Origin: a virus | Lineage: Duplodnaviria; Heunggongvirae; Uroviricota; Caudoviricetes | Reading direction: 5' to 3' (one strand) | Length of the DNA stretch: 12,399 nucleotides | Virus record (IMG/VR): IMGVR_UViG_2534681737_000003 | In this document: piece by piece, positions 1 through 12,399 of the stretch | Layout of the letters: every line of letters begins with the position of its first letter | Numbering within the stretch: position 1 is the stretch's first letter | The notes under the pieces: generated by a model | What the model was told of the DNA's origin: nothing | Seen by the model: the letters and a program-made list of their open reading frames with translations, nothing else | Databases searched by the model: none | Program-made: the position numbers and the translations under genes

Positions 1-456
1 CTGTGCGTGGTCATCATTGCCCTGCTGGTGGCCTGTGGTGCGCTTAGTCTGGGGCTGAATCATTACCGTGATAACGCCATAACCTACAAAGAGCAGCGCG
101 ATAAAAAAGTCAGTGAGCTGGAGCAGGCAAATGCAACCATTACTGATATGCAGCAGCGCCAGCGTGATGTTGCTGCACTTGATGCCAGATACTCGAGGGA
201 ATTAGCCGATGCGAGAGCTGAAAATGAAACTCTTCGCGCTGACGTTGCCGCTGGTCGTAAGCGCCTGCGGATCAACGCCACCTGTCCAGGCTCCGTGCGT
301 GAAGCCCCCACCACCTCCGGCGTGGATAATGCAACCGGCCCCCAACTGGCAGACACCGTTACACGGGATTATTTCACCCTCAGAGAGCGGCTGATGACGA
401 TGCACAAGCAACTGGAAGGGGCACAGGACTATATCCGCACTCAGTGCCTGAAATAA
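1..456 (+). CDS. Rz: Spanin inner-membrane subunit (i-spanin) Rz, 5'-truncated by the window edge
   Basis: Track ORF 7..456; the frame is open from base 1. Translation ([12 protein letters not shown]...DVAAGRKRL...[19 protein letters not shown]) is collinear with lambda Rz as I recall it. N-terminal hydrophobic stretch consistent with the signal-anchor TM. The first few codons lie upstream of the window. Confidence 0.9.
209..394 (+). CDS. Rz1: Spanin outer-membrane lipoprotein subunit (o-spanin) Rz1, embedded in the +1 frame of Rz
   Basis: Track ORF 209..394 lies wholly inside Rz in another frame. It has a lipobox (LVVSAC) followed by a proline-rich segment ([14 protein letters not shown]) that matches lambda Rz1 closely. 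Start could be ATG 209 or ATG 224; 209 aligns better with the lambda N-terminus. Confidence 0.85.
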
Positions 457-806
457 GTTTTGTTGATGCGCCGTATCGTCGCTGTATTCCCTCATTAACA
501 GAGACCGCAGCCCGACAGGGAGACTCCTCTGCGCGAGTGTGCGGGGATAATCAAAAACGATACACACCGGGGTTTACCGCGTTAACGGAGCGCGGCGTTG
601 TCCCCTCATAGTCGCCTGTCCGGTGCGATGGTGGAAGAAGCCGGATGTTTATCACTATTAATTGATGACACAGAAATGGATTCATTGAATTTCAGCACGT
701 TTTTGTATTCGTGTTATTGAACATCTGTTTATTTTACTTTTAACATATTGATAATAAAAAGAGCTGTAAATCTTTAGATGAGTCGATTTTGTCCGGGGAA
801 GTTCAA

Positions 807-947
807 ATGGATTTTATGCTGACGGTTTCTGGTGTGGTTATCCTGTCCATTGCTTATACTGCAGATAAATATGGCTGCCATTTGTTATCACGTATTGGCG
901 CTTATTGTTCGTTGATGCTGATTTTCTCGTCGCTTTTTTTTGAGTAA
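807..947 (+). CDS. Hypothetical 46-aa hydrophobic peptide (possible small membrane protein; speculative)
   Basis: Hand-translated ATG 807 to TAA 945-947: MDFMLTVSGVVILSIAYTADKYGCHLLSRIGAYCSLMLIFSSLFFE. GGGGAAG 6 nt upstream could act as a weak SD. Sits in the AT-rich spacer. Below the track length cutoff; no homology recognised. Confidence 0.15.
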   Translation: MDFMLTVSGVVILSIAYTADKYGCHLLSRIGAYCSLMLIFSSLFFE

Positions 948-1079
948 GTTATATTAATTATAACAAATAATTTTCTGTGTTATTTTTTCAGGCTATCCCG
1001 TCAGAGGGGAAGCCTGTACTGCCGGGGAGCGAATGGAAAACTGATGTGTCCGGTAACTGCGTGTTCTGTGAACACCATG

Positions 1080-1265
1080 TTACTTAATTATGTAATTCAT
1101 ACCCGAACTCTCTGTTGACAGCCTTCTTCTGCAGGCTTCAATAACCCACGCTGAAAAGTTTCCTGAACCTTTCAGATCAAGAGCGATGTTAATTTGTTCA
1201 ATCATCTGGTTTGGAAATCGGATGTTGCGGGTTGTTGTTCTGCGGGTTCTGTTCTTTGATGACAT
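1080..1265 (-). CDS. Small putative ribbon-helix-helix DNA-binding protein, possibly YlcI/YnfO-like (DUF3950)
   Basis: Track ORF 61 aa (MSSKNRTRRTTTRNIRFPNQMIEQINIALDLKGSGNFSAWVIEACRRRL...). Basic N-terminus, then a short strand-like segment and two helix-like segments, as in RHH repressors. GGGGAAA SD-like motif about 5 nt upstream of the ATG on the minus strand. Position next to cos/Nu1 resembles where ylcI/ynfO-type genes sit in E. coli lambdoid prophages (from memory, unverified). Confidence 0.45.
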   Translation of the reverse strand: MSSKNRTRRTTTRNIRFPNQMIEQINIALDLKGSGNFSAWVIEACRRRLSTESSGMNYIIK

Positions 1266-1326
1266 AATGTTTCCCCATATTCAGTGTTGCTGATTTGTAT
1301 TATCTGAAGTTGCTTTTACGTTAATT

Positions 1327-1360
1327 TGACGCAGATCAATTAATACGATACCTGCGTCAT
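1327..1360. promoter_or_regulatory. Paired inverted repeats (candidate operator) upstream of the minus-strand small RHH-like gene
   Basis: TGACGCAG at 1327-1334 has its exact reverse complement CTGCGTCA at 1352-1359, and ATCAATTA is paired with TAATTGAT. Located 60-95 bp upstream of the 1265 start of the minus-strand ORF. Function inferred only. Confidence 0.25.
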
Positions 1361-1471
1361 AATTGATTATTTCTCGTGGTTTGATGGCGTACACACATGT
1401 TGTGATAAACCTTATATAGATGATAATTATTATCATTTCGTGGGTCCTTTCCGGCGATCCGACCGGTTACG

Positions 1472-1483
1472 GGGCGGCGACCT
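1472..1483 (+). other. cosN: cosN 12-nt cohesive-end sequence (terminase nicking site)
   Basis: Exact GGGCGGCGACCT, the lambda 5' single-stranded cohesive end, in the canonical context ...GGTTACG|GGGCGGCGACCT|CGCG. Confidence 0.85.
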
Positions 1484-1520
1484 CGCGGGTTTTCGCTATT
1501 TATGAAAATTTTCCGGGATC

Positions 1521-1619
1521 CATGTCCGGTTTCTCTTCAAGTTAACTATATGAAAAATATAAAAACAGGTCTTCTGTGAACCGGACATGAACAAAAAACA
1601 GACATGTAAACCGGACATG
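1521..1619. repeat. Three copies of AACCGGACATG (one inverted, two direct) in the cosB position: candidate small-terminase R-site binding elements
   Basis: CATGTCCGGTT at 1521-1531 (inverted), AACCGGACATG at 1579-1589 and 1609-1619 (direct, 30 bp apart), with an A-rich tract (1551-1566) between the first and second. Arrangement parallels lambda cosB (R3, IHF site, R2, R1); binding is inferred. Confidence 0.55.
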
Positions 1620-1666
1620 ACCGGTTTTGTTGTGATTGTGAGGTGAGAGTTTTTGCGAGGTGAGGA

Positions 1667-2176
1667 GTGGCTACGCAGACTGAAGTTGCCAGGCATTTGA
1701 GTCTGACCGATCGCCAGCTTCGCAGATTGCAGAAATTACCGGGTGCCCCGGTCTCGAATAAGCGAGGGCAACTGGATCTGGATGCCTGGCGCGATTTTTA
1801 CATATCGTATCTGAGAAGAAGTAAAAACGATGTGCCTGATGGCGATAGCGAAGAAGACTATGAAGAGAAATTGCTTATTGCCAGATGGGAACTGACAGCA
1901 GAACAGGCTGTTACACAGCAGTTAAAAAATGAGGTGTCAAAAGGAAAACTGATTGACACCGGGTTCTGTATTTTTGCCCTCAGTAAGCTGGCAATGGCGT
2001 TATCCAGTACGCTTGATTCCATCCCTTTATCCATGCAGCGACAGTTTCCTGATTTAACACCGCGCCATCTTGACCATCTGAAAACCCTTATTGCTAAGGG
2101 GGCAAATCAGTGTGCGCGGGCAGGGGATAAATTACCGGATTTACTTGATGAATATATCAGAGCAACAACTGAATAA
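1667..2176 (+). CDS. Nu1: Terminase small subunit (Nu1 homolog)
   Basis: Track ORF 169 aa with GTG start at 1667 (in-frame TGA at 1661-1663 prevents extension); GAGG SD-like motif upstream. C-terminal two thirds are collinear with lambda gpNu1 (e.g. FCIFALSKLA...IPLSMQRQFPDL..RHLDHLK); the N-terminus has an HTH-like segment. Confidence 0.9.
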   Translation: MATQTEVARHLSLTDRQLRRLQKLPGAPVSNKRGQLDLDAWRDFYISYLRRSKNDVPDGDSEEDYEEKLLIARWELTAEQAVTQQLKNEVSKGKLIDTGFCIFALSKLAMALSSTLDSIPLSMQRQFPDLTPRHLDHLKTLIAKGANQCARAGDKLPDLLDEYIRATTE

Positions 2177-4076
2177 TATGATGAGCGCTGTCACAACTGC
2201 ATTACAGCCCCTGATAAGGGCATTGCCGGTGACGCCAGTTGAATGGGCTGATCAAAATTATTATCTGCCTAAAGAATCTTCATATGGTGAGGGCGAATGG
2301 AAAACGCTGCCATTCCAGATCGCCATCATGAACAGCATGGGGAATGATCAGATCCGCACTGTTAATCTGATTAAATCTGCCCGTGTTGGCTATACAAAGA
2401 TGTTGCTGGGGGTGGTCGGGTATTTTATTGAGCATAAATCCCGAAACAGTCTGCTTTTTCAGCCCACGGATTCTGCCGCTGAAGATTTTATGAAGTCTCA
2501 CGTGGAGGCGACGATTCGGAACGTGCCATGCCTGAAAGACCTTTCCCCATGGCTGGGTCGTAAACATCGTGACAATACTCTCACGCTGAAACGCTTTTCA
2601 TCGGGCGTCGGTTTCTGGTGCCTGGGCGGCGCTGCCGCCAAAAACTACCGTGAAAAATCCGTGGACGTGGTCTGTTATGACGAGCTTTCCTCGTTCGAAC
2701 CGGATGTTGAAAAAGAGGGTTCGCCAACCCTGCTGGGGGATAAACGTATTGAGGGCTCTGTATGGCCAAAATCCATTCGCGGCTCGACGCCTAAAATCAA
2801 AGGCTCCTGCCAGATCGAAAAAGCCGCTAACGAGTCGGCACACTTCATGCGTTTTTATGTGCCCTGTCCGCACTGTGGGGAGGAGCAGTATCTGAAATTT
2901 GGCGATGATGCCTCGCCTTTCGGTCTTAAGTGGGAGAAGAATAAGCCAGAAAGTGTTTTCTACCTTTGTGAGCATCATGGCTGTGTGATCCATCAGTCTG
3001 AGCTTGACCAGAGTAACGGGCGGTGGATCTGTGAAAACACGGGCATGTGGACCCGTGACGGCCTGATGTTTTTCAGCGCCCGGGGTGATGAAATTCCGCC
3101 GCCGCGCTCCATCACTTTCCATATCTGGACGGCGTACAGTCCGTTCACCACCTGGGTACAGATTGTCTATGACTGGCTGGATGCACTGAAAGATCCCAAC
3201 GGCCTGAAAACCTTTGTGAACACCACGCTGGGCGAGACCTGGGAAGAGGCTGTGGGCGAAAAACTCGATCACCAGGTGCTGATGGATAAGGTTGTGCGTT
3301 ACACGGCGGCGGTGCCTGCCCGGGTGGTTTATCTGACGGCGGGCATTGACTCGCAGCGAAACCGTTTTGAGATGTATGTCTGGGGATGGGCTCCGGGAGA
3401 GGAAGCCTTTCTGGTGGATAAAATCATCATTATGGGGCGTCCTGATGAGGAAGAGACGCTGTTACGTGTGGATGCGGCGATCAACAAAAAATACCGCCAT
3501 GCGGATGGCACCGAAATGACTATTTCCCGTGTCTGCTGGGACACCGGGGGGATCGATGGTGAAATTGTTTATCAGAGATCAAAAAAACACGGTGTTTTCC
3601 GGGTGCTGCCGGTAAAAGGCGCATCTGTCTATGGCAAGCCGGTGATCACCATGCCAAAAACCCGCAATCAGCGGGGCGTGTATCTGTGTGAAGTGGGAAC
3701 GGACACCGCAAAAGAAATTCTCTATGCCCGTATGAAAGCCGATCCCTCGCCTGCGGATGAAGCCACGTCGTATGCCATCCGTTTTCCTGATGATCCGGAG
3801 ATTTTTTCGCAGACAGAGGCGCAGCAACTGGTCGCGGAAGAGCTTGTGGAGAAGTGGGAAAAAGGAAAGATGCGTCTGCTGTGGGATAACAAAAAGCGGC
3901 GTAACGAAGCGCTGGACTGCCTGGTGTATGCCTACGCGGCATTACGTGTGTCCGTGCAACGCTGGCAGCTTGATCTGGCTGTACTGGCAAAATCCCGGGA
4001 AGAAGAGACGACCCGGCCAACCCTTAAAGAACTGGCAGCGAAGCTGTCCGGAGGAGTGAATGGTTACAGTCGCTGA
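2148..4076 (+). CDS. A: Terminase large subunit (gpA homolog; ATPase/endonuclease)
   Basis: Track ORF 2091..4076; preferred start is ATG 2148 (MNISEQQLNNMM...), matching the lambda gpA N-terminus MNIS.. and giving 642 aa versus 641 in lambda. Extensive collinear identity (VEWAD.NYYLPKES, GGAAAKNYREKSVDV, PCPHCGEEQYLKFGD, TFVNTTLGETWE). Overlaps the Nu1 3' end by 29 nt, as in lambda. Confidence 0.95.
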   Translation: MNISEQQLNNMMSAVTTALQPLIRALPVTPVEWADQNYYLPKESSYGEGEWKTLPFQIAIMNSMGNDQIRTVNLIKSARVGYTKMLLGVVGYFIEHKSRNSLLFQPTDSAAEDFMKSHVEATIRNVPCLKDLSPWLGRKHRDNTLTLKRFSSGVGFWCLGGAAAKNYREKSVDVVCYDELSSFEPDVEKEGSPTLLGDKRIEGSVWPKSIRGSTPKIKGSCQIEKAANESAHFMRFYVPCPHCGEEQYLKFGDDASPFGLKWEKNKPESVFYLCEHHGCVIHQSELDQSNGRWICENTGMWTRDGLMFFSARGDEIPPPRSITFHIWTAYSPFTTWVQIVYDWLDALKDPNGLKTFVNTTLGETWEEAVGEKLDHQVLMDKVVRYTAAVPARVVYLTAGIDSQRNRFEMYVWGWAPGEEAFLVDKIIIMGRPDEEETLLRVDAAINKKYRHADGTEMTISRVCWDTGGIDGEIVYQRSKKHGVFRVLPVKGASVYGKPVITMPKTRNQRGVYLCEVGTDTAKEILYARMKADPSPADEATSYAIRFPDDPEIFSQTEAQQLVAEELVEKWEKGKMRLLWDNKKRRNEALDCLVYAYAALRVSVQRWQLDLAVLAKSREEETTRPTLKELAAKLSGGVNGYSR

Positions 4077-4266
4077 ACTGCAGGCGCTGCGTCAGGCGCG
4101 CCTTGATTTATTAACCGGTAAACGGGTGGTGTCTGTCCAGAAAGATGGTCGCAGAATTGAATATACGGCGGCTTCTCTGGATGAGCTTAACCGGGCGATC
4201 AATGATGCGGAGTCGGTACTGGGGACAACCCGGTGTCGCCGTCGTCCGCTGGGAGTGAGATTATGA
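4060..4266 (+). CDS. W: Head-tail joining / head completion protein gpW homolog
   Basis: 68-aa ORF; MVTVAELQALRQARLDLLTGKRVVSVQKDGRRIEY resembles lambda gpW (68 aa). GGAGGAG SD at 4051-4057. Overlaps the end of A and the start of B. Confidence 0.9.
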   Translation: MVTVAELQALRQARLDLLTGKRVVSVQKDGRRIEYTAASLDELNRAINDAESVLGTTRCRRRPLGVRL

Positions 4267-5855
4267 AACGAACGCCTGTCCTGATTGATGTGAACGGCGT
4301 TCCGCTTCGTGAGAGTCTCAGCTACAACGGGGGCGGTGCAGGATTTGGCGGGCAAATGGCTGAGTGGTTGCCACCGGCGCAGAGTGCCGATGCGGCCCTG
4401 CTGCCCGCGTTGCGTCTGGGGAATGCCCGGGCAGATGATCTGGTGCGCAATAACGGAATAGCGGCTAATGCGGTGGCTCTGCATAAGGATCACATTGTCG
4501 GGCATATGTTTCTGATCAGCTACCGTCCGAACTGGCGCTGGCTGGGGATGCGGGAGACCGCAGCAAAAAGCTTTGTCGATGAGGTGGAGGCGGCCTGGTC
4601 GGAATACGCCGAAGGGATGTCTGGCGAGATCGACGTGGAAGGAAAACGCACGTTCACGGAATTTATCCGTGAAGGTGTGGGCGTTCATGCGTTTAACGGC
4701 GAAATCTTTGTGCAGCCGGTCTGGGATACGGAAACCACGCAGTTATTCCGTACGCGTTTTAAAGCCGTGAGTCCGAAACGGGTGGACACGCCTGGACACG
4801 GTATGGGGAACCGTTTTCTGCGGGCCGGTGTGGAGGTCGATCGATATGGCCGTGCCGTCGCGTACCATATCTGTGAGGATGATTTTCCGTTCTCTGGTAG
4901 TGGACGATGGGAACGGATCCCGCGTGAACTTCCCACCGGGCGTCCGGCCATGCTGCATATTTTCGAGCCGGTGGAGGACGGGCAGACCCGTGGGGCTAAT
5001 CAGTTTTACAGCGTCATGGAACGGCTGAAGATGCTCGATTCCCTGCAGGCAACACAGCTTCAGTCGGCCATAGTGAAGGCGATGTATGCAGCGACGATTG
5101 AAAGTGAACTTGATACCGAAAAGGCCTTTGAATATATCGCCGGCGCGCCACAGGAGCAGAAGGATAATCCGCTTATTAATATTCTGGAGAAGTTTTCCAG
5201 CTGGTATGACACGAATAACGTGACACTGGGCGGTGTCAAAATTCCGCACCTTTTCCCTGGTGATGATCTGAAACTACAGACTGCGCAGGATTCAGACAAT
5301 GGATTTTCTGCGCTTGAACAGGCGCTGCTGCGGTATATCGCCGCCGGTCTTGGCGTTTCCTACGAACAGTTGTCCCGTGATTACTCGAAGGTCAGTTACT
5401 CAAGTGCCCGCGCCTCCGCCAATGAGTCGTGGCGCTATTTTATGGGGCGGCGAAAATTTATTGCGGCCCGGCTGGCCACGCAGATGTTTTCCTGCTGGCT
5501 GGAAGAGGCACTTCTTCGGGGGATTATTCGTCCGCCACGGGCACGTTTTGATTTTTATCAGGCGCGATCAGCCTGGTCACGGGCAGAGTGGATTGGTGCC
5601 GGAAGAATGGCCATTGACGGGCTCAAGGAAGTCCAGGAATCAGTGATGCGCATTGAGGCCGGACTGAGCACGTATGAGAAAGAGCTGGCGCTGATGGGCG
5701 AGGATTATCAGGACATTTTCCGCCAGCAGGTCAGGGAATCTGCTGAGCGGCAAAAAGCCGGACTCTCACGTCCGGTGTGGATAGCGCGGGCGTATCAGCA
5801 GCAGATAGCGGAGAGTCGCAGGCCGGAAGAGGAGACAACACCCCGTGAGACGTAA
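4263..5855 (+). CDS. B: Portal protein (gpB homolog)
   Basis: Track ORF 4233..5855; preferred start ATG 4263 (MKRTPVLI..) forms an ATGA overlap with the W stop. 530 aa versus 533 in lambda. Strongly collinear with lambda gpB (NARADDLVRNNG, FEPVEDGQTRGAN.FYSVME, LQSAIVKAMYAATIESELDT, LLRYIAAGLGVSYEQLSR, GRMAIDGLKEVQE). Confidence 0.95.
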   Translation: MKRTPVLIDVNGVPLRESLSYNGGGAGFGGQMAEWLPPAQSADAALLPALRLGNARADDLVRNNGIAANAVALHKDHIVGHMFLISYRPNWRWLGMRETAAKSFVDEVEAAWSEYAEGMSGEIDVEGKRTFTEFIREGVGVHAFNGEIFVQPVWDTETTQLFRTRFKAVSPKRVDTPGHGMGNRFLRAGVEVDRYGRAVAYHICEDDFPFSGSGRWERIPRELPTGRPAMLHIFEPVEDGQTRGANQFYSVMERLKMLDSLQATQLQSAIVKAMYAATIESELDTEKAFEYIAGAPQEQKDNPLINILEKFSSWYDTNNVTLGGVKIPHLFPGDDLKLQTAQDSDNGFSALEQALLRYIAAGLGVSYEQLSRDYSKVSYSSARASANESWRYFMGRRKFIAARLATQMFSCWLEEALLRGIIRPPRARFDFYQARSAWSRAEWIGAGRMAIDGLKEVQESVMRIEAGLSTYEKELALMGEDYQDIFRQQVRESAERQKAGLSRPVWIARAYQQQIAESRRPEEETTPRET

Positions 5856-7350
5856 TCTTTCACACATTATTGCCGCAGCATTCAATGAACCGCTGCTTCT
5901 GGAGCCCGCCTATGCGCGGGTTTTCTTTTGCGCGCTCGGGCGCGAGATGGGGGCAGCAAGTCTTTCGGTACCACAGCAGCAGGTACAGCTTGATGCTCCC
6001 GGAATGCTGGCTGAAACGGACGAGTACATGGCCGGAGGTAAACGACCGGCCCGTGTTTACCGGGTGGTGAACGGTATTGCTGTACTGCCGGTGACCGGCA
6101 CGCTGGTGCACCGGCTGGGGGGTATGCGGCCATTTTCCGGAATGACAGGCTATGACGGCATTGTCGCCTGTCTTCAGCAGGCAATGGCGGATAGCCAGGT
6201 GCGGGGCGTACTGCTGGACATTGACAGTCCGGGCGGGCAGGCCGCCGGCGCGTTTGACTGCGCTGACATGATTTACCGCCTCCGTCAGCAGAAGCCGGTC
6301 TGGGCACTGTGCAATGACACGGCCTGTTCTGCAGCCATGCTGCTGGCGTCGGCCTGCTCCCGACGGCTGGTTACCCAGACATCCCGTATCGGCTCCATTG
6401 GCGTGATGATGAGCCATGTCAGCTATGCCGGTCATCTGGCGCAGGCCGGTGTGGATATCACGCTGATTTACTCAGGGGCGCACAAGGTGGATGGCAATCA
6501 GTTTGAAGCCTTACCGGCAGAGGTTCGCCAGGACATGCAGCAGCGCATTGATGCGGCGCGCCGGATGTTTGCCGAAAAAGTGGCCATGTTTACCGGTCTG
6601 TCTGTTGATGCCGTCACGGGAACAGAGGCCGCCGTTTTTGAAGGTCAGTCCGGCATTGATGCCGGGCTGGCGGATGAATTAGTCAATGCGTCGGATGCCA
6701 TCAGTGTGATGGCCACGGCGCTGAACAGTAATGTCAGAGGAGGCACTATGCCGCAATTAACTGCAACGGAAGCCGCCGCGCAGGAGAACCAGCGAGTGAT
6801 GGGGATCCTGACATGCCAGGAAGCGAAAGGACGTGAACAGCTTGCCACGATGCTGGCAGGACAACAGGGCATGAGCGTTGAACAGGCCCGGGCGATTCTG
6901 GCCGCGGCGGCACCGCAGCAGCCGGTGGCATCCACGCAGAGTGAAGCCGATCGCATTATGGCGTGTGAAGAAGCGAACGGTCGTGAACAACTGGCGGCAA
7001 CGCTGGCGGCGATGCCGGAGATGACGGTGGAAAAAGCCCGCCCGATCCTGGCTGCTTCACCGCAGGCGGATGCCGGACCCTCACTCCGTGATCAGATCAT
7101 GGCACTGGATGAGGCAAAAGGGGCTGAGGCGCAGGCTGAACAGCTGGCTGCCTGCCCGGGAATGACTGTGGAGAGCGCCCGGGCTGTGCTGGCTGTGGGA
7201 TCAGGTAAGGCAGAACCGGTCTCTGCATCCACAACCGCCCTGTTTGAACGCATCATGGCGAACCATTCACCGGCAGCGGTACAGGGTGGCGTGCCACAGA
7301 CGTCAGCAGACGGTGATGCGGACGTGAAAATGCTCATGGCTATGCCATGA
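5845..7350 (+). CDS. C: Prohead protease / scaffold protein gpC homolog (S49/ClpP-like serine peptidase, N-terminal part) with repeat-rich C-terminal scaffold region
   Basis: Track ORF 501 aa, GTG start with GAGGAG SD about 10 nt upstream; overlaps the B stop. N-terminus AAFNEPLLLEPAYARVFF and the peptidase core (IDSPGG..AGAFDCADMI, PVWAL.ND.A.SAA.LLASA.SRRLVTQT.R.GSIGVMM) are collinear with lambda gpC. About 60 aa longer than lambda C (439 aa). Confidence 0.9.
   Translation: MRRNLSHIIAAAFNEPLLLEPAYARVFFCALGREMGAASLSVPQQQVQLDAPGMLAETDEYMAGGKRPARVYRVVNGIAVLPVTGTLVHRLGGMRPFSGMTGYDGIVACLQQAMADSQVRGVLLDIDSPGGQAAGAFDCADMIYRLRQQKPVWALCNDTACSAAMLLASACSRRLVTQTSRIGSIGVMMSHVSYAGHLAQAGVDITLIYSGAHKVDGNQFEALPAEVRQDMQQRIDAARRMFAEKVAMFTGLSVDAVTGTEAAVFEGQSGIDAGLADELVNASDAISVMATALNSNVRGGTMPQLTATEAAAQENQRVMGILTCQEAKGREQLATMLAGQQGMSVEQARAILAAAAPQQPVASTQSEADRIMACEEANGREQLAATLAAMPEMTVEKARPILAASPQADAGPSLRDQIMALDEAKGAEAQAEQLAACPGMTVESARAVLAVGSGKAEPVSASTTALFERIMANHSPAAVQGGVPQTSADGDADVKMLMAMP
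6748..7350 (+). CDS. Nu3: Candidate Nu3-type scaffolding protein from an in-frame internal start within C
   Basis: Strong internal RBS AGGAGG (6737-6742) 5 nt before in-frame ATG 6748 (MPQLTATEAAAQ...); shares the C stop at 7350. In lambda, Nu3 is likewise nested in-frame in the 3' part of C. The exact start is inferred. Confidence 0.5.
   Translation: MPQLTATEAAAQENQRVMGILTCQEAKGREQLATMLAGQQGMSVEQARAILAAAAPQQPVASTQSEADRIMACEEANGREQLAATLAAMPEMTVEKARPILAASPQADAGPSLRDQIMALDEAKGAEAQAEQLAACPGMTVESARAVLAVGSGKAEPVSASTTALFERIMANHSPAAVQGGVPQTSADGDADVKMLMAMP
6793..7290 (+). repeat. Three (plus a partial fourth) diverged tandem repeats of about 47-53 codons within the C/Nu3 scaffold region
   Basis: Protein-level repeats starting at nt 6793, 6952 and 7093: RVMGILTCQEAKGREQLATMLAGQQGMSVEQARAILAAAAPQ / RIMACEEANGREQLAATLAAMPEMTVEKARPILAASPQ / QIMALDEAKGAEAQAEQLAACPGMTVESARAVLAVGSG, then a partial ERIMANHSPAAVQ near 7246. 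The DNA copies are diverged, so not a recent duplication. Confidence 0.7.
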
Positions 7351-7386
7351 AGTCAGTGCTGACCATCAACAGGAGGTTTTTACAAT

Positions 7387-7734
7387 ATGGTAACGAAAAC
7401 CATCACTGAACAGCGTGCGGAAGTACGTATTTTTGCCGGTAATGATCCGGCTCATACCGCCACAGGCAGCAGCGGGATTTCCTCGGCAACACCGGCACTG
7501 ACGCCCCTGATGCTGGATGAAGCTACCGGGAAACTGGTGGTCTGGGACGGACAGAAAGCCGGTAGTGCGGTTGGCATACTGGTACTGCCGCTTGAAGGCA
7601 CAGAGACGGTACTGACGTATTACAAGTCGGGGACCTTTGCGACGGAGGCAATCCGCTGGCCTGACAGTGTGGATGAACACAAAAAGGCAAATGCCTTTGC
7701 CGGCAGTGCCCTGAGTCACGCGGCGCTGCCGTAA
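7387..7734 (+). CDS. D: Head decoration protein gpD homolog
   Basis: 115-aa track ORF; NDPAHTATG....A.TPLMLD....KLV.WDG...G.AVGIL and YKSGTF.....WP......KK.AFAG.A.S match lambda gpD (110 aa). GGAGG SD upstream. Confidence 0.9.
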   Translation: MVTKTITEQRAEVRIFAGNDPAHTATGSSGISSATPALTPLMLDEATGKLVVWDGQKAGSAVGILVLPLEGTETVLTYYKSGTFATEAIRWPDSVDEHKKANAFAGSALSHAALP

Positions 7735-7791
7735 CACGTTATCAGGCCACCGCGGTGGCCTGACTGATTTCTGAATGAAAGGAACTGATTT

Positions 7792-8820
7792 ATGGGATTG
7801 TTTACGACCCGCCAGTTACTCGGTTATACCGAACAAAAAGTGAAATTTCGTGCGCTGTTTCTGGAGCTGTTTTTCCGCCGTACGGTGAATTTCCATACCG
7901 AAGAGGTGATGCTGGACAAAATTACCGGAAAAACGCCGGTGGCGGCCTATGTTTCCCCGGTTGTTGAAGGAAAAGTGCTGCGTCATCGTGGTGGTGAAAC
8001 CCGCGTGTTACGTCCGGGCTACGTCAAGCCGAAACACGAATTTAATTACCAGCAGGCGGTTGAGCGTCTTCCCGGTGAAGATCCGGCTCAGCTGAACGAC
8101 CCGGCCTACCGTCGTCTGCGTATCATCACTGATAACCTCAAACAGGAAGAGCACGCCATTGTCCAGGTGGAAGAAATGCAGGCGGTGAATGCCGTGCTGT
8201 ATGGCAAATACACGATGGAAGGAGACCAGTTCGAGAAAATTGAGGTCGATTTTGGCAGGTCGACGAAGAATAACATCACTCAGGGTAGTGGTAAGGAGTG
8301 GTCAAAACAGGATCGTGACACGTTCGATCCTACACATGATCTTGACCTCTACTGCGACCAGGCCAGCGGTCTTGTGAATATTGCCATTATGGACGGTACC
8401 GTCTGGCGTCTGCTGAATGGCTTTAAATTGTTCCGCGAAAAACTGGATACCCGTCGCGGCTCTAATTCGCAACTCGAAACAGCGGTGAAAGACCTGGGCG
8501 CGGTGGTGTCCTTCAAAGGGTATTACGGCGATCTGGCCATTGTGGTGGCAAAAACGTCTTATGTGGCAGAGGACGGTACCGAAAAACGTTATCTGCCTGA
8601 GGGCTCGCTGGTCCTGGGGAATACGGCAGCAGAGGGCATTCGTTGCTATGGTGCCATTCAGGATGCGCAGGCGTTGTCCGAAGGTGTGGTGGCCTCTTCC
8701 CGTTATCCGAAACACTGGCTGACGGTAGGGGATCCCGCCCGTGAATTTACCATGACGCAGTCCGCGCCGCTGATGGTGTTGCCGGACCCGGATGAGTTTG
8801 TGGTGGTACAGGTGAAATAA
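7792..8820 (+). CDS. E: Major capsid protein gpE homolog
   Basis: 342-aa track ORF versus 341 in lambda; collinear identity throughout (PGYVKPKHE, DPAYRRLRII, AIVQVEEMQAVNAVLYGKYTM, KLDTRRGSNS.LETAVKDLG, AIVVAK, GDPAREFTMTQSAPLMVLPDPDEFV). Confidence 0.95.
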   Translation: MGLFTTRQLLGYTEQKVKFRALFLELFFRRTVNFHTEEVMLDKITGKTPVAAYVSPVVEGKVLRHRGGETRVLRPGYVKPKHEFNYQQAVERLPGEDPAQLNDPAYRRLRIITDNLKQEEHAIVQVEEMQAVNAVLYGKYTMEGDQFEKIEVDFGRSTKNNITQGSGKEWSKQDRDTFDPTHDLDLYCDQASGLVNIAIMDGTVWRLLNGFKLFREKLDTRRGSNSQLETAVKDLGAVVSFKGYYGDLAIVVAKTSYVAEDGTEKRYLPEGSLVLGNTAAEGIRCYGAIQDAQALSEGVVASSRYPKHWLTVGDPAREFTMTQSAPLMVLPDPDEFVVVQVK

Positions 8821-8828
8821 TCCGTGAG

Positions 8829-8858
8829 CGGGGGCGAAATGCCCCCGTGTCTTTTTTC
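8829..8858 (+). terminator. GC-rich stem-loop plus T-run immediately after the major capsid gene (candidate partial terminator or mRNA-stabilising hairpin)
   Basis: CGGGGGC (8829-8835), loop GAAAT, GCCCCCG (8841-8847), then TGTCTTTTTTCAC with a T6 run at 8852-8857. Lies between the E stop (8820) and the FI start (8872). Function inferred; any termination is probably partial since downstream tail genes sit in the same operon. Confidence 0.4.
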
Positions 8859-8871
8859 ACAGGGGGATGAT

Positions 8872-9246
8872 ATGGCAACGAAAGAGCAAAATCTGAAACG
8901 GCTTGATGAACTGGCCCTGATTCTGGGGCGTGAGCCGGATATATCCGGGAGTGCCGCAGAGATAGCGCAGCGGGTGGCAGAATGGGAAGAGGAAATGCAG
9001 TCATCCGGCGATGATGTACAGGTTATGAATATGGATATCCGGGAGAGGGAAAACGCGGCTCATGATGTTCGTGAGGAAACATCCGGCGCGTTAACGCGCA
9101 TCAGAGTTCTGACCTGCCTCCATCTCTGTGGCGTTGATGGTGAAACGGGGGAATCCGTTGAGCTTGCGGATGTTGGTCGGGTGATTCTGATTATGTCCTC
9201 AGATGCAAAAACACACGTTGATGGTGGAATGGCTGTTTATGCGTGA
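8872..9246 (+). CDS. FI: DNA packaging / head-tail assembly protein gpFI homolog
   Basis: Track ORF 8824..9246; preferred start ATG 8872 (MATKEQNLKRL...) follows SD AGGGGGA, which avoids overlapping the hairpin. 124 aa, acidic, in the lambda FI position. Sequence similarity to lambda FI is weaker than for neighbours; assignment mainly by synteny and size. Confidence 0.75.
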   Translation: MATKEQNLKRLDELALILGREPDISGSAAEIAQRVAEWEEEMQSSGDDVQVMNMDIRERENAAHDVREETSGALTRIRVLTCLHLCGVDGETGESVELADVGRVILIMSSDAKTHVDGGMAVYA

Positions 9247-9592
9247 TTTTCAGAATGCCTTTGATGCCGCCCTTGCCGGGGTGGACAGTACGATTGTTGA
9301 AGTGATGGGCATCAGTGCGCAGTTCACCTCCGGTGCACAGCGTGGCGGCGAAGTTCAGGGGGTTTTTGACGATCCGGAGTCGCTGGGTTTTGCCAGTAGT
9401 GGGATCCGTATTGAAGGAAGCAGCCCGTCATTATTTGTGCGGACGGATACGGTTCGTGCCGTGCGGCGTGGTGACACGTTGACCATTAATGGTGAGACGT
9501 TCTGGGTGGATCGTGTTTCTCCGGATGACGGGGGCAGTTGTTATCTCTGGCTGAACCGTGGGCAACCACCCGCAGTTAACCGGCGACGATAA
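9239..9592 (+). CDS. FII: Head completion protein gpFII homolog
   Basis: Track ORF 9203..9592; preferred start ATG 9239 (MRDFQNAFDAALAG...) gives 117 aa as in lambda. Near-identical C-terminus to lambda FII (IRIEGSSPSLFVRTD.VR..RRGDTLTI....FWVDRVSPDDGGSC.LWL.RG.PPAVNRRR). Overlaps the FI stop. Confidence 0.9.
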   Translation: MRDFQNAFDAALAGVDSTIVEVMGISAQFTSGAQRGGEVQGVFDDPESLGFASSGIRIEGSSPSLFVRTDTVRAVRRGDTLTINGETFWVDRVSPDDGGSCYLWLNRGQPPAVNRRR

Positions 9593-9606
9593 ACGCAGGG
9601 TGAATT

Positions 9607-10182
9607 ATGGCGATAAAAGGGCTTGATCAGGCGATTGAAAATCTGAGCCGGGTTCGTAAAAACGCCATTCCGTCGGCTTCAGCAATGGCTATTAACCGCG
9701 TGGCTACAACGGCGATTAATCAGTCTTCATCACAGGTTGCCCGGGAGACCAGGGTGAGCCGGAAACTGGTAAAGGAACGGTCCAGACTGAAACGGGCCAC
9801 GGTCAGAAATCCGAATGCCAGAATTATCGTTAACCGCGGTGATCTCCCTGCTATTAAGCTGGGGATCAGGATGCTTGGTCATCGTCCGAACAGCATACTT
9901 AAAGCCGGTCAGCATCGTTATCAGCGGGCATTCATCCAGCGATTAAATAATGGGCGCTGGCATGTTATGCAACGTTTGCCAGAAGCCCGGTATGCGAAGG
10001 GCAATGACGATAAAGGAAGGAAAAAGCGTAATCGTCTTCCCATTCAGGTGGTTAAAATTCCGATGGCGGCCCCACTGAAGCAGGCTTTTGATGAGAACGT
10101 TAACCGTATCCGGCGAGAACGTCTGCCAAAAGAACTGGGCTATGCGTTGAAACAACAACTAAGGATTGTGATAAAGCGATGA
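9607..10182 (+). CDS. Z: Tail completion protein gpZ homolog
   Basis: 191 aa versus 192 in lambda; MAIKGL.QA.ENLSR....A.P.A.AMAINRVA..AI.QS.SQVARET.V.RKLVKER.RLKRATV.NP.ARI.VNRGDLP.IKLG and C-terminus IERIRRERLPKELGYAL..QLR.VIKR match lambda gpZ. Confidence 0.9.
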   Translation: MAIKGLDQAIENLSRVRKNAIPSASAMAINRVATTAINQSSSQVARETRVSRKLVKERSRLKRATVRNPNARIIVNRGDLPAIKLGIRMLGHRPNSILKAGQHRYQRAFIQRLNNGRWHVMQRLPEARYAKGNDDKGRKKRNRLPIQVVKIPMAAPLKQAFDENVNRIRRERLPKELGYALKQQLRIVIKR

Positions 10183-10574
10183 AACATACTGATATCCGTG
10201 CTGCAGTGCTGGATGCACTCGAGCAGCATGAACACGGGGCGACGCTGTTTGACGGTCGCCCCGCTGTTTTTGATGAGGCGGATTTTCCGGCAATTGCTGT
10301 TTATCTCACCGGCGCTGAATACACGGGCGAAGCGCTGGACAGCGATACCTGGCAGGCGGAGCTGCATATTGAAGTTTTCCTGCCTGCTCAGGTGCCGGAT
10401 TCAGAGCTGGATTCGTGGATGGAAAGCCGGATTTATCCGGCGATGAGTGCGATCCCGGCACTGTCAGGCCTGATTACCACGATGGTTACGCAGGGCTATG
10501 AGTATCGTCGTGATGACGATATGGCGTTATGGAGTTCTGCTGATTTGACTTATTCCATTACATACGAGATGTGA
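10179..10574 (+). CDS. U: Tail terminator protein gpU homolog
   Basis: 131 aa; near-identical to lambda gpU over most of its length ([79 protein letters not shown]). ATGA overlap with the Z stop. Confidence 0.92.
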
Positions 10575-10581
10575 GGACGAT

Positions 10582-11334
10582 ATGCCAACACCAAATCCTC
10601 TGGCACCGGTAAAAGGTGCCGGTACCACCCTGTGGGTTTATAACGGTCAGGGTGATGCCTATGCAAACCCGTTGTCAGACGATAACTGGCAGCGACTGGC
10701 ACAGGTAAAGGATCTGACGCCGGGCGAGATGACGGCAGAACCCTACGATGATAACTACCTGGATGATGAAGACGCGGACTGGACTGCGACCGGGCAGGGG
10801 CAGAAGTCTGCAGGAGATACCAGTTTTACGCTGGCCTGGAAACCGGGAGAAGAAGGTCAGAAAGGGCTTATAGGCTGGTTTGAAAGCGGGGATGTGCGGG
10901 CCTATAAAATCCGTTTCCCGAACGGCACGGTGGATGTGTTCCGTGGCTGGGTCAGCAGTATCGGTAAGGCCGTAACGGCGAAGGAAGTGATCACCCGTAC
11001 GGTGAAAGTGACCAACGTGGGTAAACCTTCTGTGGCGGAAGAACGCAGCGAAATTACGCCGGTCACTGCGATTAAGGTGACGCCGACATCTGGTACGGTG
11101 GCAAAAGGGAAAACAACAACCCTGACGGTTTCTTTTGAGCCGGAAAGTGCAACCGACAAAACGTTCAGAGCGGTTTCCGCCGATCCGTCAACGGGAACCA
11201 TTGCTGTGAAAGATATGGCGATCACTGTGACGGGGGTTAAGGCTGGAAAAGTGAGTATCCCCGTGATTTCCGGTAATGGTCAGTTTGCCACGGTAGCTGA
11301 AGTCACCGTTACTGAAGCGGGCGCTGCAGGGTAA
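10582..11334 (+). CDS. V: Major tail tube protein gpV homolog with C-terminal Ig-like (Big_2-type) domain
   Basis: 250 aa versus 246 in lambda; N-terminal 150 aa near-identical to lambda gpV ([114 protein letters not shown]). More variable C-terminal Ig-like domain. Confidence 0.95.
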
Positions 11335-11347
11335 ACGGAGGTAATAC

Positions 11348-11779
11348 ATGTTTCTGAAAACCGAACAATTTGAATATAACGGTGTGTCCGTCACGCTTTC
11401 CGAGCTGTCTGCGCTGCAGCGTATCGAGCATCTTGCCCTGCTGAAACGACGGGCAGAACAGGCTGAAGCCAGCGGTAACCTGCAGGTGAGCGTGGAAGAC
11501 CTTGTCAGAACCGGCGCGTTTCTGGTGGCGATGTCCCTGTGGCATAACCATCCACAGAAAACGGAGTCACCATCAATGAATGAGGCTGTGATGCAGATCG
11601 AACAGGAGGTGCTCACCACCTGGCCTGCTGATGCCATTGCCCGGGCGGAAGACGTGGTGTTGCGTCTGTCCGGGATGAGCGGGGCTGTTCATGTGGATAC
11701 GGATATCACCGAAGTGGCGAAAAATAACGCGCTTACTGATGATGATTTTTCTGCGGGAAAGTCTTCGACGGCGAGCTGA
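11348..11779 (+). CDS. G: Tail assembly chaperone gpG homolog (zero-frame product of the G/GT frameshift pair)
   Basis: 143 aa; [35 protein letters not shown].......[52 protein letters not shown] near-identical to lambda gpG. Ends ...SAGKSSTAS like lambda (..SAGKCSTVS). Confidence 0.92.
11755..11761 (+). other. Programmed -1 ribosomal frameshift slippery heptamer G GGA AAG (G to G-T)
   Basis: GGGAAAG at 11755-11761 in the zero frame of G (codons GGA 11756-11758, AAG 11759-11761), the same heptamer and position (about 6 codons before the G stop) as in lambda. The -1 frame downstream is open and lambda-T-like. Confidence 0.8.
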
Positions 11780-12399
11780 ATTTTGCCCTCAGACTGGCGC
11801 GAGAGATGGGGAGGCCTGACTGGCGCGCCATGCTTGCCGGGATGACATCCACCGAATATGCCGACTGGCGACATTTTTACCGCACGCATTATTTTCAGGA
11901 TACCCAACTGGATATGCATTTTTCCGGGCTGATGTACGCTGTACTCAGCCTGTTTTTTTGCGATCCGGATATCGGGGCAACCGGTGAACGGGGACCGAGA
12001 GGAGATACAGGTCCGGCAGGTCCGCAGGGGCCGAAAGGCGACAGGGGAGAGCGGGGAGATACCGGTCTGACGGGAAGCGCAGGTCCACAGGGTCCAAAGG
12101 GAGATACCGGTGCGGCAGGCCCGGCAGGCCCACAGGGACCGAAAGGAGAAACAGGTGCGGCTGGCCCGGTGGGGGCAACCGGACCTCAGGGACCGAAGGG
12201 CGACCCGGGGGAGACACAAATCCGTTTTCGTCTGGGGCCGGGAAACATTATTGAGACAAACAGCCATGGCTGGTTCCCGGATACAGATGGCGCACTCATC
12301 ACCGGACTGACCTTTCTTGACCCCAAAGATGCCACACGGGTTCAGGGTTTTTTTCAGCATTTGCAGGTCAGGTTTGGTGACGGGCCGTGGCAGGATGTC
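11761..12399 (+). CDS. -1 frame continuation of G: lambda gpT-like N-terminal segment (about 70 aa) fused in-frame to a collagen-like Gly-X-Y repeat and a further domain; 3'-truncated by the window edge
   Basis: Hand-translated from 11761: [70 protein letters not shown] is collinear with the lambda gpT region just after the frameshift, then diverges into the Gly-X-Y triplets and [63 protein letters not shown]. No stop to 12399. Absent from the track, most likely because it has no in-window stop. Confidence 0.65.
11974..12216 (+). repeat. Collagen-like triple-helix repeat, 27 uninterrupted Gly-X-Y triplets (coding-level repeat)
   Basis: Frame 1: [81 protein letters not shown]. The GPQGPKG(D/E) unit recurs four times with synonymous codon differences. 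Confidence 0.85.

Follow-up and report, generated by a model that had tools for sequence, protein, structure and literature searches.

The window, a stretch of 12,399 nucleotides of caudoviricete DNA (IMG/VR record IMGVR_UViG_2534681737_000003), carried a run of genes from the lysis genes through Nu1, A, W, B, C, D, E, FI, FII, Z, U and V to G. The tail tube gene V was located directly upstream of the chaperone gene G, in the order V-G-T found in lambda (Table 1). The exact G protein was common among E. coli prophages (4,087 index blocks), and at all 10 of the 10 places shown it was accompanied by a complete tail module. Programmed −1 frameshifting of the lambda type at the end of G is known from the work of Levin (1993) and of Xu, Hendrix and Duda (2004, 2013, 2014), reviewed in PMC5009743. 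The slippery heptamer, which the first-pass annotation of this sequence had described as conserved, was present in the lambda phase.

Table 1. Features around the 3' end of the window, in window coordinates.
Feature	Position	Strand	Remarks
Major tail tube gene V	10582..11334	+	Pfam Phage_TTP_12 (E=2e-68) plus Big_2; last intact tail gene upstream of G
Tail assembly chaperone gene G	11348..11779	+	Intact, 143 aa; Pfam Phage_TAC_2 (PF06894), E=3e-50
Slippery heptamer G GGA AAG (−1 frameshift)	11755..11761	+	Phase as in lambda; near the 3' end of G
T' remnant	11755..11972	+	First 72 residues of the −1-frame T part; ends ...LSLFFCDPD
Deletion junction	11972..11973		T homology to 11972, stf homology from 11972/11973; three-way alignment of window, intact T and intact stf
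Collagen-like region	11974..12216	+	27 uninterrupted Gly-X-Y triplets (81 aa); stf residues 281 onward; Pfam Collagen, E=3e-15
PfC (Phage_fiber_C, PF06820) trimerisation/C-terminal domain	12217..12399, runs off the window	+	E=6e-33, profile positions 1–60 of 64

The −1 frame crossed the stop codon of G and stayed open between 11755 and the window end. As the first-pass annotation had stated, it ran from the T frame into collagen-like tail-fibre sequence without meeting a stop. The annotation had estimated that about 70 residues were collinear with lambda T and that the lambda protein was about 75 residues longer. The alignment yielded 72 residues, with 60 of 73 positions matching the −1-frame T part of lambda (82% identity), while 74 of the 146 residues of the lambda T part were missing. 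The Pfam profile Phage_tail_T (PF06223) matched the −1 frame only over positions 1–36 of 73, and with 72 of 146 lambda residues the frame in the window did not contain a complete T domain. The locus thus resembled the lambda G/G-T chaperone system in its intact G, in the phase of the heptamer and in the gene order, but differed in a T part that halted midway, in the absence of a tape-measure gene next to it and in the entry of the frame into tail-fibre sequence.

The transition, placed near 11971 by the first-pass annotation, consisted of a single hybrid codon, ATC (11971–11973), encoding Ile, with AT derived from T and C from codon 280 of the fibre gene. The predicted 27 Gly-X-Y triplets followed, and the non-collagen domain that had been seen leaving the window was identified as Phage_fiber_C. 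The annotation had also called for the sequence to be extended downstream. In a second IMG/VR contig (UViG_2537561727_000008), the stop of the fused frame was read 48 nt beyond the window end, at window-equivalent positions 12445–12447. There the frame ended ...WQDVKGLDEVGSDTGRTGE, followed by the stop, and the PfC domain was complete. If the frame were translated by way of the frameshift, the chimera of G, N-terminal T and collagen that had been anticipated would have a predicted length of 366 aa.

Homology to the intact side-tail-fibre gene (stf) began at residue 281, and G281 was the first fibre residue retained. In the Pfam search of the fused frame, no match to PF08400 (PfN) was obtained, and PCoil was likewise missing. 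Compared with side tail fibres of the EPclA type, which have the architecture PfN-PCoil-Col-PfC (Ghosh et al. 2012, PMC3368898), the window kept Col and PfC, after which, as in other fibre loci of this type, comes a small second PfC ORF. It lacked the first 280 residues, comprising the PfN virion-attachment domain, PCoil and the first collagen triplets, and it lacked the fibre gene's own start. On the minus strand, an ATG-initiated ORF of 223 aa (11689–12360) lay antisense to the T'/collagen/PfC frame; it was rejected as a gene, the simplest cause being the stop-poor composition of a Gly-X-Y coding repeat.

The breakpoint was placed by a three-way alignment of the window with intact T and intact stf, and fell at 11972/11973. 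Homology to T ran to ...GATCCGGATAT and fibre homology started at (T)CGGGGCAACC..., so that T codon 55/56 was joined in frame to stf codon 280/281. The microhomology at the join was 1 nt, a single T common to both sides; nothing was inserted, and no repeat was present at the junction. A run of seven T residues at 11952–11958 was the same as in intact T. A whole-window search covered 5,426 complete E. coli genomes. The best match to positions 1–11972 was a prophage of E. coli O55:H7 DEC5B (99.6% identity), and all 15 of the 15 best matches listed terminated at exactly 11972. Between 11700 and 11972, the nucleotide identity with the intact DEC5B prophage was 100%, and the frameshift module was therefore untouched.

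Beyond this point, the DEC5B prophage continued with a complete T, the tape-measure gene, M, L, K, I, J, lom, stf (a 404-aa 'prophage tail fiber N-terminal domain' protein) and the small PfC ORF, and then with an IS2 element, four NleG/DUF1076 effector genes and the integrase. Both flanks of the junction were collinear with DEC5B, the left flank to position 27966 of the DEC5B locus and the right flank from about 38249. Relative to DEC5B, about 10.28 kb were missing (locus positions 27967 to about 38248). The missing stretch took in the final 82 codons of the T gene, the genes H, M, L, K, I, J and lom, and codons 1–280 of the fibre gene. A break of homology at a single point was thus combined with the absence of the intervening genes, as in a deletion-derived pseudogene fusion. 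From 11972/11973 onward, the window had 99.5% nucleotide identity to an intact 437-aa stf gene of the O103 strain ML775, and the Col and PfC part had 99.3% identity to the fibre gene of phage ArgO145, whereas the identity of the stf part with the stf of DEC5B was only about 88–91%.

An identical junction was found in the closed genome of E. coli O157:H16 98-3133, the only one of the 5,426 complete E. coli genomes to carry it. It was also found in the second IMG/VR contig, which was 100% identical to window positions 8123–12399, and in the metagenome contig OLIE01000603.1. In all three sequences the tape-measure gene H was absent after the fusion ORF, which was followed by the small PfC ORF and then by IS or NleG genes. 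In 98-3133, the right flank (small PfC ORF, four NleG-family genes, integrase) was collinear with DEC5B at 98.5%, and the four effector genes 3' of the junction had protein accessions identical to those of DEC5B. The fused frame was open in four of four carriers, which were 98–100% identical to each other; conservation was seen only within a narrow clone. At the window-equivalent of position 8123, the first 80 nt of the reverse complement of the second IMG/VR contig matched a near-holin region of the DEC5B locus (13745–13824), which reflects either a repeat artefact at the contig end or a further rearrangement within capsid gene E.

Over the fused frame, the window and 98-3133 differed at 12 nucleotides, all in 12242–12399 and eleven of them in 12242–12351, within PfC. 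These differences turned six residues into the DEC5B allele, a pattern indicating that paralogous fibre genes of prophages exchanged alleles once the deletion had taken place. The sister prophage of 98-3133 had further lost head and head-tail genes relative to window positions 7392–9028 and 9569–10216. Since these losses occurred on top of the same junction, the T-stf deletion is older than the later decay.

The arrangement was rare. A scan of the 185,579 species-representative genomes of GTDB returned no instance of the junction. The 295 homologues of the fused ORF were divided into fibre-only sequences (up to 80% query coverage) and T-only sequences (26%), and no representative of a 90% cluster among them combined PF06223 with Collagen or PfC. 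The annotation of the 213-aa T'-collagen-PfC ORF was inconsistent between databases. The exact ORF of the 98-3133 type was deposited in GenBank from 12 draft contigs, labelled 'phage tail assembly protein T' (including EEW8232886.1, EEY0310019.1, EFB8800870.1 and EFE9134977.1). For 98-3133, PGAP/RefSeq described two pseudogenes instead, a 'phage tail assembly protein T, incomplete, missing C-terminus' adjoining a 'phage tail fiber C-terminal domain-containing protein, incomplete, missing N-terminus'. Two other chimeras ending in the same fibre gene were encountered. A 316-aa protein (MY011_28990) of independent origin combined an integrase arm-binding domain (PF13356) with collagen and PfC, and strain 2013C-4974 had a junction of truncated tape-measure and fibre genes (locus L002, 6501–7533) that was independent of the T-stf join. 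Deletions in such prophages may often end in stf.

The element is a defective lambda-like, NleG-effector-carrying prophage of EPEC/EHEC-type E. coli. We interpret the T-collagen fusion as the scar of an internal deletion of about 10.28 kb in this prophage, and as a non-functional pseudogene fusion, with a probability of roughly 0.93. According to this interpretation, T would have lost its C-terminal 82 codons and an EPclA-type stf its first 280 to one illegitimate deletion, together with the genes H-M-L-K-I-J-lom between them, and the broken ends, sharing one nucleotide, would have happened to join in frame. Past the intact G GGA AAG site, the −1 frame would then read T' (72 aa), Ile, collagen (81 aa) and PfC. 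The stop-free frame, the incomplete T and the predicted chimera had all been recognised correctly in the first-pass annotation, but their cause, the deletion, had not. Rather than representing a novel type of chaperone-fibre gene, the fusion is a product of ordinary prophage decay, and public databases already contained it. The in-frame join and the open frame in all carriers count against a scar, since both would also be expected under selection. A random join is in frame with a chance of 1 in 3, and because the carriers are 98–100% identical, the open frame is uninformative on selection. The additional loss of head genes in 98-3133 fits continuing decay. In the lambdoid prophages of EHEC, deletions of morphogenetic genes have been described as the rule, with only a minority of elements keeping all of these genes (Asadulghani et al. 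2009, PMC2669165). Like the defective lambdoid prophages of O157 and O55 in that study, the element in the window carries effectors, has lost essential tail genes by internal deletion and is still decaying in a sister strain. Its sole peculiarity is that the deletion is in frame downstream of a frameshift site.

Two other origins of the junction were considered. E. coli of this type contains numerous, nearly identical lambdoid prophages, with as many as 20 matching places in one genome. An assembly could have joined T and stf of different prophages through a chimeric contig or a collapsed repeat, and near-identical repeats are a classic cause of misassembly. The first-pass annotation had itself named an error around 11960–11980 as a possible objection. 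The objection did not hold, as the identical junction occurred in four independent sequences (closed genome, IMG/VR contig, metagenome contig and the 12 deposited contigs) that differed by 0–2% elsewhere. Moreover, the junction shared only 1 nt, without a repeat, and the run of seven T residues was unaltered with respect to intact T. We regard an artefact as practically negligible. A biological variant would be recombination between two prophages, with T from a DEC5B-like element, stf from another, and the chromosome between them lost or rearranged. The stf part was indeed closer to the ML775 and ArgO145 alleles than to the cognate stf of DEC5B, but the sequence downstream of the fusion in 98-3133 was collinear with the right arm of the same DEC5B prophage, and the clustered PfC differences that reproduce the DEC5B allele indicate a later allelic exchange. 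Alleles of stf are also known to be mosaic. Recombination between two prophages is accordingly unlikely as the origin. For the internal deletion, the closer match to ML775 and ArgO145 would mean that either the direct ancestor carried a fibre allele unlike that of DEC5B or the allele was exchanged later.

The fate of the open frame in the cell depends on transcription and frameshifting. A scan for promoters and terminators over 11200–12399 detected neither promoter-like nor terminator-like sites from V to the end of the window, and hence no sign of an independent transcription unit. In lambda, the 0 frame is maintained in about 96% of cases, with G and GT at a ratio of about 30:1 (PMC3296357, PMC5009743). 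Provided that transcription of the late operon persists, frameshifting would be expected in a few per cent of the ribosomes that translate G, and these would make a 366-aa G-T'-Ile-Col-PfC by-product instead of the normal 290-aa GT. Fragments of EPclA consisting of Col and PfC were reported to fold as trimers alone, with PfC acting as a trimerisation module that nucleates the triple helix (PMC3368898); by analogy, the 366-aa by-product could well be trimeric. It is useless as a chaperone for its own element or as a fibre, because half of the T domain, the cognate tape measure and tail tip, and the virion-attachment domain of the fibre are absent. The prophage is itself incapable of building a tail. 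Nothing suggests a function for the 366-aa chimera.

Selection for a new role was nevertheless weighed. An induced G-T'-Col-PfC trimer might interfere with the tail assembly of a co-resident or superinfecting lambdoid phage, or the chimera might have been retained for some other new role. The untouched frameshift module, the lack of a terminator-like site from V to the window end, the autonomous folding and trimerisation of Col-PfC, and the open frame in all carriers are compatible with such a role. So is the reported sensitivity of lambda tail assembly to the G:GT ratio, with the tape measure as the binding partner of G and V as that of T (PMC5009743, PMC3296357). A retained function is highly improbable, however. 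The junction was confined to near-identical sequences and was rare among complete genomes, no diverged lineage was available in which purifying selection would be displayed, and the same prophage was still decaying in 98-3133. The other independent deletions ending in stf, in strain 2013C-4974 and in the gene of MY011_28990, gave different chimeras, as random decay predicts, and just half of the T domain was left. In its most specific form, the proposal would make the trimer, with three tape-measure-binding G domains and a crippled T, a dominant-negative poison of tail assembly in other lambdoid phages, for which we see scarcely any likelihood; if true, the chimera would be an accidental, deletion-born interference factor.

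It is also quite improbable that the frame is expressed as a stand-alone 213-aa T'-Col-PfC protein from ATG 11806, independently of the frameshift in G, as the GenBank drafts imply. No start codon of the open frame lies before this ATG (11806–11808), which corresponds to the Met at which PGAP starts intact T proteins, and the 12 contigs carry the exact ORF under the T name. The sole purine-rich stretch (GAGAG), however, abuts the ATG without a spacer, leaving no usable Shine-Dalgarno spacing, and RefSeq treats the ORF as two pseudogene fragments. In addition, the T protein of lambda arises by frameshifting, as GT (Levin et al. 1993, cited in PMC5009743 and PMC3296357), which counts against a separate start. 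The first-pass annotation had raised the possibility that such an arrangement was an annotated prophage tail-fibre gene of common occurrence and with an independent start; the rarity of the arrangement and its treatment as truncated pseudogenes in RefSeq exclude that.

The biological importance of the fusion, as the scar of a deletion, is small. It demonstrates that an in-frame deletion 3' of a programmed frameshift site can mimic a designed fusion. The name 'phage tail assembly protein T' given to the 213-aa chimera in GenBank drafts is misleading, and the treatment as two pseudogenes in RefSeq is correct. The junction GCGATCCGGATAT/CGGGGCAACCGG can conveniently serve to mark the clonal lineage in which it occurs. 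For the prophages themselves, the locus is one more case in which effector prophages of EHEC and EPEC shed tail genes by illegitimate deletion while keeping their head genes, lysis genes and effector cargo.
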